Assembly: GCF_001447785.1 (NCBI RefSeq)
Contig: NW_015167060.1
Span: 150,041-214,040 of the forward strand
DNA from: Gekko japonicus
Taxonomy: Eukaryota
Direction: 5' to 3'
DNA: 64,000 bases
The notes under the pieces: model-generated
What the model was told of the DNA's origin: nothing
Seen by the model: the letters and a program-made list of their open reading frames with translations, nothing else
Database searches by the model: none
Position numbers and translations under genes: made by a program
Shown here: positions 555 through 16,400 of the stretch, in pieces
How positions within the stretch are numbered: the first letter of the stretch is position 1
Layout: each line of letters starts with the position of its first letter

Positions 555-1490
555 CTGCAAAGGTTCATAAGACAGAAAGAGGGTTTTGTCACTCACATGC
601 TAGTTTCTGCCCCTTAGAAGCCAGACTGATTCCTGAGCCCAGTCCTTGTAGGATGCTTTCTGCTGTCATAAACAACATTTTTGGCTAAGTCTCACAAGAG
701 AGCATTTATCAAAATTATTCCCAGCTTCTAAGCTGCCTTGAGTCCCAGTGAGAAAGGCGGGCTAGAAATAAGCTAAATAAATGATTGCCTAGAGAGCACT
801 GCCCCATCCAAAATGAGCAAAAAACGCTCACTATATGTTACAGGAACTCCAAGATATTCCAGTGAGTTATTCTAACCTTGAGTGTAGATTACCACATCTG
901 CAGGACTCAAGATAATGCAAATCTAAAAGCTAAAGAAGTTTCAGAGGTGGGGATTAAAAGGGGAAGATGAAAATACAATGATGCAGTGTACTTCTTCAAC
1001 ACTTTTGGAAGCTGTTGTCTTATCCACACTCAGACTTGAATCAGAATTGAAAACCTTACCTTAGTCCTTGTTTGATTGCAGAGTACATATAAAAATACAA
1101 GTATGAAAATCCACATGAAACTCTTATGCCAACTCTACACTGAGAAAATTGTAGTGGTCGTGATTGGCTCATCTAATAGAATCAAGTCTTAAACCTTTAT
1201 CCCTTGACTCTTCCATAGAACAAGGCTAGAGACAATTTTTGCTGATGAACACAAAGTTGGCAACTACCATTACAAGACACCCTATTTTATTTTTATTTGT
1301 GGCAATCCTAATTTTAGTAGGACTACGTTGATGAGATGTGTATACTGTGGGAAGGTACCACCACTCTAAATGTGGGGCAGTCACTTAGCATGGTTGGAAA
1401 ACAGAAAAAACTGCACACCTGTTCGCACTCCACAGTCTAAAAAACCGTTTTGCATAGCAAGGAGAAGAAATGTACTGAAGATGAATGAGC

Positions 1491-1680: not shown

Positions 1681-1804
1681 CGAGCGGGGAGGAGGAACCG
1701 GTGAAGCCGTCCGGGACACGTGGGCAGGCGCGGGAGTGGCGCCGGTACAGGGCCCGGTTGGAGTGAACCAGCTATTAATTGGCCGCTGCTGCCAAAGAGC
1801 TGCT

Positions 1805-2097
1805 ATGCCCAGCAAGCTGCCAGCCGAGATGGCGCAGCTGGTGGACGACTACCTCCAGCACCACCTGTGCGGCCGGCTCGGCGCTGCCCCCCAGCCGCAC
1901 GGCCAAGAGCCTGCGGCGGGTGGTGGATGAGCTGGAAAGCCACGAGAAGATGTTCTTCCGCTCGGCTTGCAGCCCTGCGGCCTCGGAGCCCGGCAGGGCG
2001 GCCGCCCACTTGAGCCGGGTGGCGGCGCAGATGGAAGCAAATGGCGGCCTGAACTGGGGCCGGGTGGTGGCGCTGGTCGTGTTCACCGGCAACCTGC
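1805..2097 (+). pseudogene. BCL2L10: BCL2L10 / NR-13-like Bcl-2 family fragment (BH4 to BH1), frameshifted near 1865 and truncated after BH1
   Basis: MPSKLPAEMAQLVDDYLQH then, in another frame, SALPPSRTAKSLRRVVDELESHEKMFFRS...LSRVAAQMEANGGLNWGRVVALVVFTGNL. Contains the BH1 NWGR motif and aligns with recalled chicken NR-13 (MPGSLKEETALLLEDYFQH...LPPSATAAELRR...DGGLNWGRLLALVVFAGTL). Confidence 0.85.
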
Positions 2098-2115
2098 ATG
2101 GCTGCAGGGTAAGAA

Positions 2116-2434
2116 CAGGGAGGGGGAGGAGGTGAGGGGGGCGCGCTCCTGCTTCTCCTGCTGCTTCTGCAGCATCGCTTGCCTGCCGCCGTGGCTGCAG
2201 CCTTCTCCAACCCAGCCCCTTCGCAATGGCTGTGCTTCCGTCCGGCTGCGCCCCGGGTGATGTGTGTGCGGTGCACGCGTGCTTTGCACGCGCGCACGCA
2301 CATTCCAGCCACAGGCCGGGAGTCCCCCGGTACGGCATTATTTTGACTTGGCAACCCTAGGTAAGAACGATGCTTGCGCCCTCCCCACTTTCCCCAGGCC
2401 TCCCCCCACTAAAAAGGTCCTAGCTACGGGCCTG
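2116..2434. mobile_element. Nested hAT-type MITE ends: TAGGGTTGCC-family end at 2350-2359 and CAGGCCCGTAGC-family right TIR at 2420-2434
   Basis: ttggcaacccta and ctagctacgggcctg; GGTAAGAA is repeated at 2108-2115 and 2360-2367. Confidence 0.6.
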
Positions 2435-2946: not shown

Positions 2947-3594
2947 TGAGACTGGCAAGTGATTTCAGCTCTCATACTTTATTAGAAGTTCAGAACAAGA
3001 CAAAGTTCCCGACCCACAGGCCGGCTTATATCTCCCCACTACCCAAACACCTTCCCACTCTAGTGATAGGCTATTTACAGTGTAGGGTTGCCAAATTGAC
3101 TTACCTTGACGGCAGGGGAGCCTCACCGGGCTCTGGGAGCTCTCCGGCGATGCATGCGCGAGTGCGCGAAGCGCGTGCGCGCCGCCAGCACATCACAGGA
3201 AGTGACGTGCTACATCGCTCATGTTGGGGGCATGGCCCCGATCGTCAGAGGGGTTTTCCCTCAGACGATCGGGGCCACGGCCCCAACGTGAACGACGTAG
3301 TTGCGTCACCTCCAGTGATGCAACCACGCTGCGCTTCGGGGAACGGAGTTCCCCCCGGGGCCCGATTCCGCGGCGGCGGAAATCAGGCCTCCAAAGCAAG
3401 GGTTTACCCGCCACCCGCCCCCACTTGGCAGCCCTATTACAGTGGCCAAGAGTTCCATAGGTCCAGACCAGAAGCCTAGTCCTCCGATTGGTACAGCTGG
3501 GATCCGCTTGGGCCATTGTCTCCCGGAGCAAAGCTTAAAGGCTTCGCATGACCGCATGGCGATCTATCCTTGCACGTGGTTGGGTCTAGATACA
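2947..3594 (-). mobile_element. Possible solo LTR interrupted by the 3083-3436 MITE
   Basis: TG...CA ends; on the - strand CCAAT (about 3487), ATATAAG (3025-3031) and AATAAA (2978-2983) in LTR order; no TSD seen. Confidence 0.35.
3083..3436. mobile_element. Non-autonomous hAT MITE
   Basis: TIRs TAGGGTTGCCAA / TTGGCAGCCCTA; perfect 8-bp TSD TTACAGTG (3075-3082, 3437-3444). Confidence 0.9.
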
Positions 3595-3599
3595 TTATA

Positions 3600-6535
3600 C
3601 CCTTATTTATAGTGATAGGGACCATCTGCCTGAAGACGATTGATTTGGATCGGACTGCTGCTACGACTTATATAAGTAACCGCTGTAATTGTTGTTTAAA
3701 TTGAGGTATTTGGTCTGATTAATTGATTTGGGGGGGTTGATTAGTGCTACTAGTTAATTGTTATTTGCCAATTAATTGGGGGTGATTTAGAGAGGGTGCT
3801 AATTGATTGTTGTTAAACTGTCCAATTAATTGGGGGTGGATTTAGTTGCTGCTAATAAATTGTTAATTTGCCAATTAATTAGGGAGGGTTGATTTAGAGT
3901 GGGCTTTAATTAATTGTTGCTATTACGCTATTTAATTAATTGGGGGTGGATTTAATCAGATCTAGGGTTCTATTTAATGGCCCTATATTCGATTTATGGT
4001 AAACTTCGACATTAGCTTTAGTAAATATGCCATTGATCCCCAGCCTTTATGTAGTTTACTGGCTGAGAAAGTAGGTTTAGATAAGGGAAAATATAGAAAA
4101 ATAGGCAATCAGAAGCTATAAGATTAATGTTAGGGCTGCAAGAGTAGAATTAGGATAGACCCAGTATTGTATTTGGATTAGGAATAGTCAGCAGTTAATT
4201 TTTATTTTATTTTTATTTATGCATTCGATTTATATACTGCTCAGACCCGAAGGTCTCTGAGTGGTTTACAGGCGATTTTCCAAATACAGTTAATTCCTAA
4301 ACTAGGGCCACATGAAATGGGGGTGGGGGCTGCCTACTGGCACTCAGGTGGTGGGATAGTTGTTCTTCCGGCTTTGGCTCCGGCTGCTTTCTTCCTGGCG
4401 TCCTCGGATTGCCTTTTATCGAATAATAGCAGCATGCAGTAGGTCAGAATACTGCCAACTAATGGGTGAATCTGGGGCTTGAGCCAAGTGCGGTCGATGA
4501 AGATCACCAGGGTAGTAATGGCCAGGCAGGGAATCCCAGTGCTCTTGGGAAGGGGAAGGTATAGCGGTGGGACCAGGCGGAGATGGAAGGGAAGGGGGCA
4601 GAGAAATGGAGAAACTCAGCCACCTTCCAGCCTGTGTCCCATCCCAAAGGTGGCAGACAGTGGGGCAAGGATAAAAAACTCCTCTCTGACACTGGTGCTG
4701 TGCAATGCCAGGTCCATAAACAATAAGACCTCAGTCCTACAGGACTTCCTACTGGAGCAGGACATGGATCTGGCGTGCGTGACCGAGACCTGGGTACGAG
4801 ACGGGGCGACGGTTGCTCTCTCCCAGTTGGCTCCTCCTGGGTTCTCGGTCCTTCACCAATCTCGGACTTTGGGGCGGGGGGGAGGAGTGGCTTTGTTCAT
4901 TCAGGAGGCTTACTCCTTCAGGGCGCTCCCAGCGGTGAGGATCGCAGACACTGAGTGTGCCGGTTTTGTGTGGGAAGCCGGGGAGAGTTTGGCTGTCTGG
5001 CTAGTGTACCATCCGCCCAACGCACCAGCGGACAGCCTGCCATCTCTGGTGGAGGCCGTGTCGGGCTGGGCATTGGAACACCCTAGGCTGCCAGTCCTGG
5101 GTGATTTCAACGTCCATGCCGATGATGCGACCTCCTCCCAGGCGGTGGACCTGGCATCATCCATGGCGGTGCTGGGATTCTCCCAATATGTAACGGCCCC
5201 CACTCATCAGGTCAGTCACACGCTTGATTTGATCTTCGCGGCAGGGGTTACAGTGGACTGGATTACTGCTACGGCAGTACCATGGTCAGACCACCATGCC
5301 ATGAGGGCCCGAGTGAACTTGTCACCCCAACCCTGTTTGGGCAGCGAGCGGATTTTGGCTTGCCCATGGAGCCTAATGGACCCACTGCGGCTTCAGATGG
5401 CTCTCCAGGATCCATTGCCCCCTGGTGGCTCGTTAGATGAGCTAGTCGAGGACTGGCATAGCCGATTCTCGGCGGCCATTGACAAGATTGCTCCCAGACG
5501 CCCTCTGCGCCCTCACTCAAGGCTGGCTCCTTGGTATACCCAGGAGCTGAGGCTGATGAAGCGAAGGCTCAGACAGCTAGAGAGACAGTGGCGGCAGGTT
5601 CACAACGAAGCGTCAAGAACATCCTATCGAACGTTTATGAAATCGTATGAGATGGCAACCAAGGCTGCGAAGAAGGAGTTCTACGCAGCCATGATTGCGT
5701 CTGCAAGCTCATGCCCGGCACAATTATATAGAACGATTTGGTCTCTAACCACCCTGCCACAGAGCAGTCAAATTCTTAGGGAATTGGATATAGGCTGTGA
5801 GGCTTTTGTGAGCTATTTTGCAGATAAAGTCTTGTTACTCCACTGCGACCTCCCGGCCACACTTGAGACAGTATGTGAACTCGATGCCCCATGCACGTCT
5901 TCTGGTCCCATTCTGGATTATTTCAGCCCTCTCAACCTAGAGGAAGTTGACAGATTGATCTCAACGGTATGTCCAACCACATGCAGCCTTGATCCGTGCT
6001 CCTCCTGGCTAATTAATTCTGGCCGCGAGGGGTTTCGAGGCACTCTTAGGAACATTATCAACAGGTCCCTCTCTGAGGGCCTATTCTCTACATGGGGCTG
6101 CCCTTGGGGCAACTCCGGAAGCTGCAGCTGGTACAAAACGCGGCAGCCAGGTTGCTGATGGGCCTCTCCAGGTGGGAGCACATCCAGCCTGTGCTGAAGT
6201 CATTGCACTGGCTTCCAATAGCGTTCCGGGTTCGCTTCAAGGTGCTGGTTTTGACCTTTAAAGCCCTTTATGGTCAGGGGCCTGCCTTTCCCCGCATGTC
6301 CCCCAGAGAGCACTGCAATCTGGAACACAAAACCGCCTGGCCCTCCCTGGGCCTAGGGACGGCAGGCTGGCAGCAACTAGGACCAGGGCGTTCTCCCTGG
6401 CGGCACCGACGCTCTGGAACGAGCTCCCAAGTGAGATCAGAGCACTGCGGGACCTCCAGCCATCCCGCAGGGCCGTGGAAACGGAGCTTTTTCGCCGGGC
6501 CTTCCAGTAGGAACGACTTCATCGGTTGTGTTGCA
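3600..6535 (+). mobile_element. L2-clade LINE with an open APE endonuclease ORF (4479-6086) and the RT domain deleted
   Basis: LCNARSINNK, ACVTETW, GGGVAL, LGDFNVH, HTLDLIF, WSDHH motifs; jumps from IINRSLSEGLF directly to the C-terminal LYMGLP..LQLVQNAAARLL..LHWLP block; no YxDD; 5' boundary approximate. Confidence 0.88.
3700..3955. repeat. About 55-bp degenerate minisatellite (about 5 units) with core CCAATTAATTGGGGGTGGATTTAG
   Basis: Cores at 3768, 3822, 3871 and 3931. Confidence 0.75.
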
Positions 6536-6539
6536 CTTG

Positions 6540-6908
6540 TTTTATTTATTTATTTCATTTCATTTATACCCCGCCCTCCCTGCACACAGGCTCAGGGCGG
6601 CTTACAAGGCACAAAGTGCAATAGAGATAAAACAGATGAAAACAGTTGAAGCTAAAATTTAACAACTAACAGGATACAGGAAGACTAAAACTACACACTC
6701 CCCCACTGCATATCAGGAGGAGGTCAGGAGGGGGGACGCCACGGGCCACGATGTTCCAGTTGCTCCACCAGCCCAACCCGGCGGTACTGCTCCGCAGTTA
6801 CGCGGTGGTGGTAGTGGCGGCGGCGGCTCCTACTCAAAAGCCTGGCGGAAGAGCTCCGTCTTGCAGGCCCTGTGGAACTGTAAAAGGTCCCGCAGGGCCC
6901 TGATCTCT
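6540..6908 (-). mobile_element. L2-clade LINE 3' fragment, inverted relative to the adjacent copy
   Basis: (TTTA)n tail then reverse complement of the L2 3' end (gagctccgtcttgcaggccctg...cccgcagggccctgatctc). Confidence 0.8.
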
Positions 6909-13400: not shown

Positions 13401-16400
13401 CTTGTTTCCGAGTGGAATCTCGTCCACGCAGACTTTTTGCACTGATCCCAGACTCAGACGTCTGCATGATCAGCTGTGTGGCTAGAAATTGCTGCAAGAA
13501 ACCACATAACAGCTATTAGGGTTCTCAACGTGAATGCATGTTAGTGGCTTTGCTACTACAATGTTGGACTTTTCAGTTACTGGTTTGTTTCTAAACCTGC
13601 ATTTCTTTTGCTTCATGGTAAGTCAGCAGGTTAAGTGATTTCTTTCTATGGGGGTTGGACAAGCCAATGAGACATTCAAGATGCCAAAAGGAGCAGGCCT
13701 CTTCCCTAATTTTGATCAGTACCTCCCCACACCAAATCAGGATATGAAGACTGCCCTGACTGTGCCTTTACCTGAATCTGCTCCAAGACATCTCGCTGCA
13801 TTTCAACAGCCATGTGGTACACATCATGGTCAGAACTGTTGTACATGACAGCATTCTGGAACATTAGCATGATATCTCGTTGGAACTCTGCTGTGGTCCG
13901 GATCAGCCCATTTTCAATATTTTTTTTAATGGTTGATAAATCCATTGGCCTGTCAAAAACACAGCAATCAAGTTTTTAGCTTTAGCAATAAGATTTATTA
14001 AAAAATACATCTTGAAAAACAAACGGCAACTCTTAAAACTAGCCCATCTCTTTCCTTCTGTATATGCCAAGAATCCAAATCATCTCAATTATTATCTTGA
14101 TTCATTTTATTACTGCTTTGTGCAGATAACTTAGTCTCCTACTTTATATAATTCCTTACTTGTTTCTCCAGTTTTAAAATTGTTCCATCTTTCCTGGTCC
14201 TTTTTTACTTTCTGCTGCTTTAAGCTCAGTTCCTCTGTTACTTACTGCGGTAAGCTGCTCTAAACAACTTTGAGAAGTGGCATATAAATATTTTTAAAGA
14301 TACACACAAACTAATTGCTCCAACTACCTGACTGTATTGGTGCTAGGCTGAATAGACCTTGCTTCTATTCTGAATGCCACATACTTAATAAGAAGTCAGG
14401 CCCGTAGCCATGGGGGGCATTTGGGGGTGACACCCCCCATGGATGAGCCCCGCCCCACCCCAGGAAAATGACAGACCCACCCACCCTCAGTGCGCTGCGT
14501 TCCTTACCCCTGCCTGCGGCAGCCTCTCCAGCTCTGCCTGCTGAAGTCGAGCAGGAGGGGAGGGAGAGGGGCGGCCTCACCAGAAGCAGGAAGACCCAGT
14601 GATGCTGCTCGGTGGCTGCCCACCGGGGTAAGGAGCTGCGGATGGCACCTACAGAGGGGAGGGGGCTCGTCACTCTAAAAGTGATCTGGCAGAGAAGCTC
14701 TGCGGGGAGAGAGACGGCAGCCCGAACGGAGGAGGAGCAAAGCCCATCACAGAGCTGTGTGGCAGGGCAGTGGGTCAGGTCTGTTCTGGGGAGGGGGGCC
14801 TCTCTCTGAAGTCCCCAGCAAGGCCAATGAAGGAGCATTTTAGGATTTCTCCTTTGTCTCCCCACTTTCTTCTGCCTAGTCAGCAGCGTTGACTGTGTTC
14901 AGCTAGTGCAAAAACTTTTACCCACAGACTCCCAGGCACTAGACCAGAAGTCTGTTATAATTTGGCAAGATGAGACATGCCAGCTTTCTGCAGCTGGCCA
15001 TGGCTGGGAAGGACTTTAGGATCATGGAGGAGGAGAGCCCAGCCCAGAGCTGTGCAGTGGGGCAGTGGGTCAGGCCTATTCCAGGGGAGGGGTGTGTGTC
15101 TCTCATTGGAGCCTCCTTGAGGCTCCAAAATTATTTTATTTATTTTTATGTTATTATTTTTGTGACACCATGCCCCCCCCCGGTGCTCCCCCACCGAAAA
15201 TATTCTGGCTAAGGACCTGTAAGAAGTCAGTATTGACCTGTAACAGACTGATTCAACATCAGCACAGAAATGGTTACTGACCTCTGTACAATACTGTGGT
15301 ATCCTGGTGCTATATCATCAGTCACCGGCTGCAAGAAGACATTGGCATATCTGTATAAGGAAACAGGCAGTAGTGAGTCCTTGTAAAATGACATGACTGG
15401 CTGCTGAAACCCAAGTAGATACGGGGGGGGGGGGCTGAGATGGCAGCACAGTCCCCAAGTGCAGACGTATTGACCAGTCCCTCCCACACATTTATTCGAC
15501 ACATTAGACCCAAAGAATTTTGCAGTCTGAAAACCCACATTCTGCAACCCGAGTTGCACAAAGAAACTGTCCACATTTTGTCTGCTTTTTTGGACCAGTT
15601 CTATCAAACTGGGGAAGCAGAACTGGGACCTGTATAACATTGGGCAGTTGCTGATATAAAAAGTCAGATGCATGAAGTGGGAGCTGTAATTTGTGATGAT
15701 CTGCTACTCCCCAACCACTAAAAGGCCATTCTAGATAGACTAAGTCTATCAACCATCTTTTCATCCAAAGACACTCTAGAGAGTGTAAATGAAAATCAGA
15801 TAAGCCAATTCCCCTTTATTCATAACAATCATCCCAACAATGATCGCATCCCTCTTAAACTGAGGTCAAAGGCCTTTTATAAAAGAAAATGTTTGAATTC
15901 AGCCTGAAAGGCCTGTAGGGATGGTGCCAACCTCACTTCTTGGGGGACAAAGCTTCACAGTCAGGGGAGGCCCTCCAAAGAGCGCTAGCCAACCTAACCC
16001 CAGCTAAGCTAATGCTGTTCATGAATTTTGGGACTTTCTCTGAATTTTCCAGCATGGCCACAAGGGCTTGGTCAAGATGTTGGCATATGAGACACCCTTG
16101 GATTCTCAGAATGTCACAGAGGCTGCCAAAAAGCCCCATGGAAATTTCAAATACTAGAGAATTAAAAGCAAGTAGTCTTCTTTTTAGAAGACGAAGAAGA
16201 AGAAGAGATTGGATTTATACCCTGCCCTTCACTACCCAAAGGTGTCTCAGAGCGGCTTACAATCTCCTTTCCCTTCCCCTCCCCACAACAGACACCCTGT
16301 GGGGTGGGTGGGGCTGAGAGAACTCTGACACAAACTGCTCTCTCAGGAACAGCTGTGCCAGAGCTTGCGACTGACCCAAGGTCACATCAGCAGGTGCAAG

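Follow-up and report, generated by a model that had tools for sequence, protein, structure and literature searches.

How does the 5' end of an apoptosis gene come to lie, cut short, against the terminus of a DNA transposon? The question is raised by positions 1681-2434 of a 64,000-nucleotide stretch of contig NW_015167060.1 from Gekko japonicus (hereafter the window), where an initial annotation had read a CpG-rich fragment of the Bcl-2-family gene BCL2L10 (NR-13) followed by a terminal inverted repeat (TIR), and had proposed that the fragment was captured by a non-autonomous hAT element. We find that the segment is a member of a multicopy family of non-autonomous DNA transposons and contains BCL2L10 upstream DNA, exon 1 and splice donor. 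At roughly nine chances in ten, it is a copy of a non-autonomous cut-and-paste transposon, probably a hAT, that took up this DNA likely via template switching in break repair, has reached at least 21 sites and carries a likely non-functional cargo.

The BCL2L10 fragment in a dispersed family

Positions 1681-2100 of the window match the 2.49-Gb genome at 41 places, distributed over 34 contigs. All 34 contigs were examined, and a locus was counted when it held at least 35 bp of BCL2L10-derived sequence. There are 42 such loci, 28 with at least 30 coding bp and 15 with at least 150. Near-complete copies measure 0.83-1.0 kb and have the same two ends, 12-bp TIRs (CAGGCCCGTAGC...GCTACGGGCCTG) flanked by 8-bp target-site duplications (TSDs); the copies also have one common left junction. 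Both ends are present at 24 of the 42 loci, and 18 of these 24 show a TSD with at most one mismatch (exact in 16). Three further loci were closed, two with wider flanks (L153 and L166) and the window copy through an orphan contig, which raises the number of different TSDs to 21; 14 of these belong to copies that contain coding sequence. Two of the 42 loci (L052 and L053) belong to a different, Helitron-like element. Judged by these distinct duplications, the element has jumped with its BCL2L10 piece to at least 21 separate sites.

The parent gene lies elsewhere, as the initial annotation had supposed. The gecko BCL2L10 protein (P0002) matches contig C1129 of the assembly (G000), with exon 1 at 130593-130997 and exon 2 (100%) at 119793-119921. 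Exon 2 was matched at the parent only (1 of 30 protein matches). Gβ-WD40 exons, which we take to belong to GNB5, stand 24-37 kb upstream of the parent on the same strand. Parent exon 1 matches the Pfam Bcl-2 family (PF00452, E = 1.4e-19) and its closest homologues are gecko BCL2L10 (96%), which confirms the identity first read from the fragment. Every BCL2L10-bearing copy sits on a contig other than that of the parent.

Both ends of the window copy

The left end of the window copy falls in an assembly gap (Ns at 1491-1680). The initial annotation had proposed looking for a left TIR preceded by CTGATGCT, the 8 bp that follow the right TIR, and a pattern search of the genome for this combination found it at two places, L071 and an orphan contig of 951 bp (L072, G000:C63688). 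L071 was rejected as unrelated. The orphan contig matches window 736-1490 at 99.08% over 757 bp and extends 166 bp into the gap, where it finishes with CTGATGCT and then the left TIR and arm. From this contig and from sibling copies the contents of the gap can be reconstructed: the left flank continues for 166 bp up to and including the TSD CTGATGCT, and is followed by the left TIR CAGGCCCGTAGC and by some 115 bp that comprise left arm and the first cargo bases. CTGATGCT is the 21st distinct TSD of BCL2L10-bearing loci. By this reconstruction, in which the ~115 bp in the gap are modelled on the siblings, the window copy is complete, with TIRs and TSD at both sides. DNA-run contigs X5 and X9 span window 1000-1490 and stop 137 and 183 bp beyond it, whereas the probable RNA runs X1 and X11 give no cover of this stretch, an absence without weight.

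Much the same picture might arise if a collapsed or wrongly scaffolded part of the real BCL2L10 had been joined at the gap to the end of a miniature inverted-repeat transposable element (MITE). The assembly does form chimeras in this family: the end of parental exon 1 with its right TIR and flank is borrowed, TSDs are swapped, and the left end of the window copy lies in the gap. We nevertheless regard such an artefact as very improbable, since the orphan contig independently gives the same left 8-bp TSD, the window copy can be told apart by substitutions and a deletion of its own, the TSDs at 16 gap-poor loci are exact and differ from one another, and DNA-run contigs show the alleles and indels of the copies. 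The doubts originally attached to the locus, namely a misjoin at the gap, a sole BCL2L10 locus and a sequencing-error frameshift, are dispelled by the matching TSD, the parent on its separate contig and the inheritance of the frameshift.

With the window copy taken as a genuine insertion, its parts can be placed as follows. Captured BCL2L10 upstream and 5' untranslated region (UTR) DNA occupies 1681-1804 (+ strand, as are the parts below unless stated), by alignment to the parent (L005) and to RNA contigs. The coding sequence of exon 1 follows at 1805-2096 (about codons 1-97, with the Bcl-2 homology segments BH4, BH3 and BH1); its ATG is at 1805, its frame closes after 41 amino acids (aa), and the NWGR of BH1 is at 2052. 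A frameshifting 4-bp insertion at 1868-1875 was inherited from a source copy and is common to eight copies, and is therefore not a sequencing error. The abrupt stop after BH1 described in the initial annotation is there, and is explained by a private internal deletion of ~98 bp (junction at 2096/2097) that took the rest of exon 1; it is not the end of the gene fragment, as the last exon-1 codons (with the BH2 Trp codon changed) and a GTAAG splice donor at 2109 resume at 2097-2113. In the parent, RNA contigs end at the same boundary, and sibling copies, unlike the window copy, hold the complete exon 1. Positions 2114-2254 are probably the start of BCL2L10 intron 1; siblings have the same DNA directly after the donor, and the corresponding parent stretch is chimeric.

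The family right arm (2255-2434) is present too in members without BCL2L10 cargo. It contains a nested piece (2315-2359) ending in a TAGGGTTGCC-type MITE terminus, with GGCAACCCTA at 2350-2359; short stretches of it match the MITEs at window 3083-3436 and at L071. The nested piece is fixed in the right arm of one subfamily, 186-191-bp core MITEs included. The MITE at window 3083-3436 is itself CpG-rich, of the TAGGGTTGCC type, and contains an internal palindrome. The element closes with the right TIR GCTACGGGCCTG (2423-2434, - strand) and the right copy of the TSD CTGATGCT (2435-2442). Of the right TIR as first drawn (2420-2434) the outer end holds; the perfectly conserved part is 12 bp, and 15 bp match in one subfamily only. 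The other positions first assigned (TATTAA at 1773, the ATG, a single frameshift, the MITE end at 2359 and the extent of the gap) were all recovered. The CpG observed/expected ratio of the copy is 0.64-0.79, compared to mostly 0.05-0.35 in the rest of the window.

Origin of the cargo

Full copies begin 183 bp before the ATG, span all of exon 1, retain the GTAAG donor and continue for ~140 bp into probable intron 1. This content identifies the cargo as genomic, unspliced DNA and not mRNA. Neither a spliced junction nor a 3' poly(A), the hallmarks of a retrocopy, was found in the copies: the donor is kept and exon 2 is seen only at the parent. Like a processed pseudogene, the fragment is a dispersed broken gene copy; unlike one, it lacks exon 2 and poly(A), keeps upstream DNA and donor, and is TIR-bounded, and in this respect the initial annotation was correct in setting a retrocopy aside. 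The TATTAA (1773) that it listed within the upstream sequence calls for a correction. The motif is a derived change; because the parent reads TCTTAA and the site lies inside a stretch covered by RNA contigs, it is not a parental TATA box.

At the left junction an 8-bp microhomology, CGCCGTGG, is common to the parent, the cargo junction and a BCL2L10-free family member (L070), which is consistent with microhomology-mediated template switching. We propose that a pre-existing family member would have switched template into the BCL2L10 CpG island at CGCCGTGG, that ~0.7 kb of BCL2L10 would have been copied before a return to the member's own right arm, and that a transposase acting in trans could then have mobilised the BCL2L10-bearing element. 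Descendants may have gained more CpG-island pieces, or lost internal stretches, by the same route. The window copy would be a late, internally deleted and frameshifted descendant that landed antisense in an intron of a bromodomain gene (presumably BRD8), where it is probably inert.

Indels common to copies include deletions of 4 bp (at -162), of 6 bp (near -20 to -28) and of one codon (at +176); the order of events is read from shared indels only, and the copy tree is weakly supported (low bootstrap). These shared features bear on transposition-independent gap filling, by which resident MITEs at each site would have been repaired separately from the BCL2L10 locus. Gap filling is the commonest origin of animal Pack-TIRs in the part of Tan et al. 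(2021; PMC8277862) available here, and it is probably how the founding event and the secondary captures came about. As the source of the dispersed copies it is hardly credible: dispersed copies that have one left junction and a nested set of mutations in common cannot have arisen through separate repairs, and all the copies are on contigs other than the parent's. Capture followed by transposition is the account retained below.

Decay of the captured exon

In the longer alignments, copies diverge from the parent by 4-9%, with CpG transitions at ~10-20% of CpG positions compared to 2-5% for other changes; the loss of CpGs implies germline methylation. The window copy differs from the parent by 23 substitutions in 412 bp (5.6%), 14 of which are CpG transitions, at 104 CpG positions. 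Retained CpGs had been taken as a sign of a recent capture, which at this divergence and with this share of CpG transitions is only partly right. Non-CpG distances to the parent are 1.1-5.3% in 13 copies, and at usual squamate rates the copies would be of the order of ten million years old. Among pooled distinct substitutions, the nonsynonymous to synonymous ratio is 0.82 at non-CpG and 1.19 at CpG positions, with three stops. By these measures the cargo evolves neutrally. A complete exon-1 product is encoded by none of the 13 ATG-bearing copies, and the window copy has no intact open reading frame with BH2 and the C-terminal membrane anchor.

Some copies might still be functional, either as mobile promoter/first-exon modules or through antisense or small RNA that tunes BCL2L10 or the host gene. 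The cargo does have promoter-proximal DNA, an ATG and a donor, the orientation of the window copy within its intron is antisense, one probable-RNA contig of depth 2.5 holds the junction of a short derivative, and 30% or more of Pack-TIRs are transcribed as chimeras according to the available part of Tan et al. (PMC8277862). Set against this are the neutral decay and CpG loss, the 41-aa frame and the RNA cover of exon 1, which in two runs amounts to one parent-type contig each, and a function for the copies is on balance unlikely. The low-depth contig joins parent-unique upstream DNA to a right arm; it fits, by eye, an assembly chimera with a short L043-type derivative via a 33-bp shared stretch and was not used as evidence.

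A wider family of mosaic elements

Each end of the family gave ~800 first-look candidates. A 20-nt left-end motif had 103 exact matches compared to 0 for its reversed control, which is far beyond chance. For 14 of the first 30 of these 103 left ends, a closing end with a TSD was found no more than 1.5 kb away; eight of the closed elements are MITEs of 175-179 bp and six are elements of 0.9-1.4 kb with CpG ratios of 0.43-0.74. BCL2L10-derived sequence is present at 7 of the 30 left ends examined.

The longer members are mosaics of other CpG-island DNA, for which two sources were traced. The extra cargo of L153, which is in permuted order, derives from a CpG island with an apparent first coding exon and donor on contig C7856 (L194:1500-1800, G000:C7856:473773-474739), and the cargo of L033 from a CpG island on contig C17313; the family TIR pair was found at neither source (L193/L194, L203). 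A second TIR family (ends GGGTGCGTTCAGACGG; L147, L148 and L151, also L146 and L149) has CpG-rich cargo in common with the BCL2L10-bearing L025, L009 and L030. The two exceptional loci L052 (1049-1711, oriented) and L053 (1090-1698, oriented) are element copies with the BCL2L10 exon-1 end and the duplication typical of L033-type hAT copies; we take them to be Helitron-like from a 3' hairpin followed by CTAG|T. They suggest that the BCL2L10 cargo may have passed between transposon classes. L091, L092, L097, L098 and L103 form a near-identical subfamily of 179-bp MITEs with related TIRs, and their near-identity points to a mobilising transposase active more recently than the BCL2L10 copies. L165:125-3121 is a family member of 2.6-3.0 kb whose right end and TSD are duplicated and whose interior resembles a retrotransposon.

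The TIRs of hAT elements are short (5-27 bp) and follow the consensus YARNG. The family has the 8-bp TSD and short TIRs (12-15 bp) of hAT elements; its main TIR form starts CAGGC, one base off the consensus, and one subfamily has an end in CAGGG. No matching transposase came to light at 40 DUF4371 loci or 20 further hAT loci, and hAT membership rests on TIR and TSD anatomy; the TIR-bounded capture itself, as originally proposed, stands. A decayed hAT transposase (PF05699) at L152:5182-6780 (- strand), beside a family right end, was rejected as a partner: in the 20 relatives examined, homology begins only at a point ~1.7 kb internal to that end, and the TIRs are lacking. This transposase belongs to a family of ~40 scored copies at 70-94% identity, with termini that differ from those of the Pack family. 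A shell from another superfamily with 8-bp TSDs, P or Merlin, would fit both the lack of a linked hAT transposase and the base by which CAGGC departs from YARNG. It is rendered quite improbable by the CAGGG subfamily end, by the abundance of hAT transposase relics in the genome and by the rank of hAT as the commonest animal Pack-TIR superfamily, with 208 of the 370 Pack-TIRs that the available part of Tan et al. reports from 100 animal genomes (PMC8277862). The family behaves as a non-autonomous hAT, and its membership in that superfamily is likely on structural grounds.

Several observations weigh against the account as a whole. One microhomology is thin support for a mechanism, the right capture junction is not visible, and the start of the parent's intron is chimeric. 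The TIR pair surrounds a transposase at none of 40 DUF4371 loci (out of 131 matches) and none of 20 further hAT loci, and no transposase was found inside family elements. Six of the 24 two-ended loci are without a TSD, and among these are loci with flanks exchanged between contigs. Several TSDs are swapped between contigs and the short-read assembly mixes copies, leaving exact counts and the tree soft; swapped flanks and TSDs are a sign of repeat collapse, and the counts are therefore approximate. Finally, the sequence of the window element is interrupted, ~115 bp still lying in the gap.

The assembled end of parental exon 1

Contigs of two probable RNA runs, at depths of 295 and 142, agree with parent exon 1 apart from four sites and one 3-bp insertion. 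These differences restore the orthologous AGEKREWL, and the RNA contigs end at the exon-1 boundary. The assembled parent exon 1 ends AGQRECL..GGW, with AT replacing the donor, and is followed by the family right arm, TIR and a gap. This tail has 98.5% identity to copy L031, whose flank it also bears, and the locus of L031 itself has a complete CTGGGACT TSD pair. Because the RNA contigs give the residues of orthologues and the tail and flank equal those of L031, we conclude from these comparisons that the assembled 3' end of parental exon 1 is an assembly chimera built from transposon copies. The chimeric stretch (L005:1070-1426, G000:C1129:130276-130632) shows a Trp to Cys change in BH2, a lost codon, a lost donor and a borrowed TIR and flank. 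A right TIR resident in the parent's intron (L005) was ruled out by the identity to L031, by L031's own CTGGGACT TSD pair and by the orthologue-type residues of the RNA contigs. A search for an orphan contig overlapping the post-gap side of the parent, where the true intron start would lie, returned one match, itself only. A public predicted protein (P0050) carries the chimeric residues; short-read genomes can misreport CpG-island genes as mutated, and BCL2L10 exon 1 with P0050 is an example.

BCL2L10-related sequences are also numerous in another gecko. Heteronotia binoei has many full-length NR13-like models of 178 aa, ~70% identical to BCL2L10 (P0022, P0024, P0026-P0028, P0031, P0051-P0057; P0021, P0030, P0045, P0058), which include exon-2 sequence; one cluster of 8 sequences lies on up to 8 contigs each, and there are at least 18 protein accessions. 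A literature search on this amplification found nothing. The set is apparently a separate and intact amplification, going by its gene models, and is not seen in the Gekko japonicus genome. Gekko kuhli also has diverged copies.

Comparison with known systems

Within the available part of Tan et al. (PMC8277862), only 4 Pack-TIRs are multicopy, with 3 and 5 copies in two of the 4 cases, and the median capture is 224 bp; the anole has zero Pack-TIRs and the set includes no gecko. The terms gecko, Gekko and BCL2L10 are absent from 12 searched supplementary files of that paper. From what the same source describes, the gecko family resembles Pack-hAT-N8_XT, with CAPSL 5' UTR in Xenopus tropicalis, in being a non-autonomous TIR element with 5' gene DNA, distinct TSDs and junction microhomology, and it fits the FoSTeST model. 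It is unlike the animal multicopy Pack-TIRs in its copy number (at least 21 TSD-defined copies), its ~0.7 kb of cargo with a whole coding exon and its serial multi-locus mosaics. As in Ssk-FB4 of Drosophila, a coding gene and its upstream region were amplified by a non-autonomous TIR element; Ssk-FB4, however, is near full-length, young, expressed and selected (PMC8277862, in the same part), whereas the gecko cargo consists of exon 1 alone, is frameshifted and decays neutrally. A literature search, with repeat databases (Repbase/Dfam) and subscription journals outside its scope, returned no report of a gecko or BCL2L10 capture.

Pack-MULEs have a GC-rich 5' bias. In plants, Pack-TYPE elements frequently contain DNA from several loci, according to the available part of Gisby and Catoni (2022, PMC8903248), and the gecko family is like the Pack-MULE and Pack-TYPE elements described there, maize Pack-hAT included, in its family-wide capture, its several source loci and its amplification after capture. 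It differs from them in its amniote host and in a cargo taken from CpG islands and then lost to CpG decay, and no contribution to host genes was found. In the literature compared, as far as it was available, amplification of gene pieces at such a scale is reported mainly from plants. By its structure the element is a Pack-type DNA transposon, unusual for an amniote in copy number, whole-exon cargo and serial mosaic capture. In this amniote family CpG-island DNA has been captured serially and amplified in the manner of plant elements, and its nested copies allow the order of capture and the junction rules to be reconstructed. More tentatively, it might be part of an amniote system on the scale of Pack-MULEs. 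The longer hAT-type members would then for the most part be mosaics put together from the promoters and first exons of CpG islands; amplification by tens of copies and transfer to Helitron-like and other TIR families would have spread promoter-ATG-donor modules over the whole genome, some of them driving chimeric transcripts or silencing their parents in trans; we hold this extension to be possible and rather doubtful.

The host gene and its intron

A bromodomain exon lies at window 13709-13975 (- strand) and a second one ~7 kb to the left of the window, also on the minus strand; the element is between the two and antisense to them. By its motif, we take this bromodomain gene to be BRD8. The placement of the window copy antisense in a putative BRD8 intron is geometrically correct. 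The initial annotation had further suggested a BRD8 pre-mRNA with antisense BCL2L10 sequence, with which the predicted geometry agrees; no expression or effect was found in this analysis. A CpG-rich fragment of a long interspersed nuclear element at window 4470-6650 (+ strand) is likewise antisense in the intron of the bromodomain gene and has an open frame of 562 aa, which resembles an endonuclease/reverse transcriptase reading frame.
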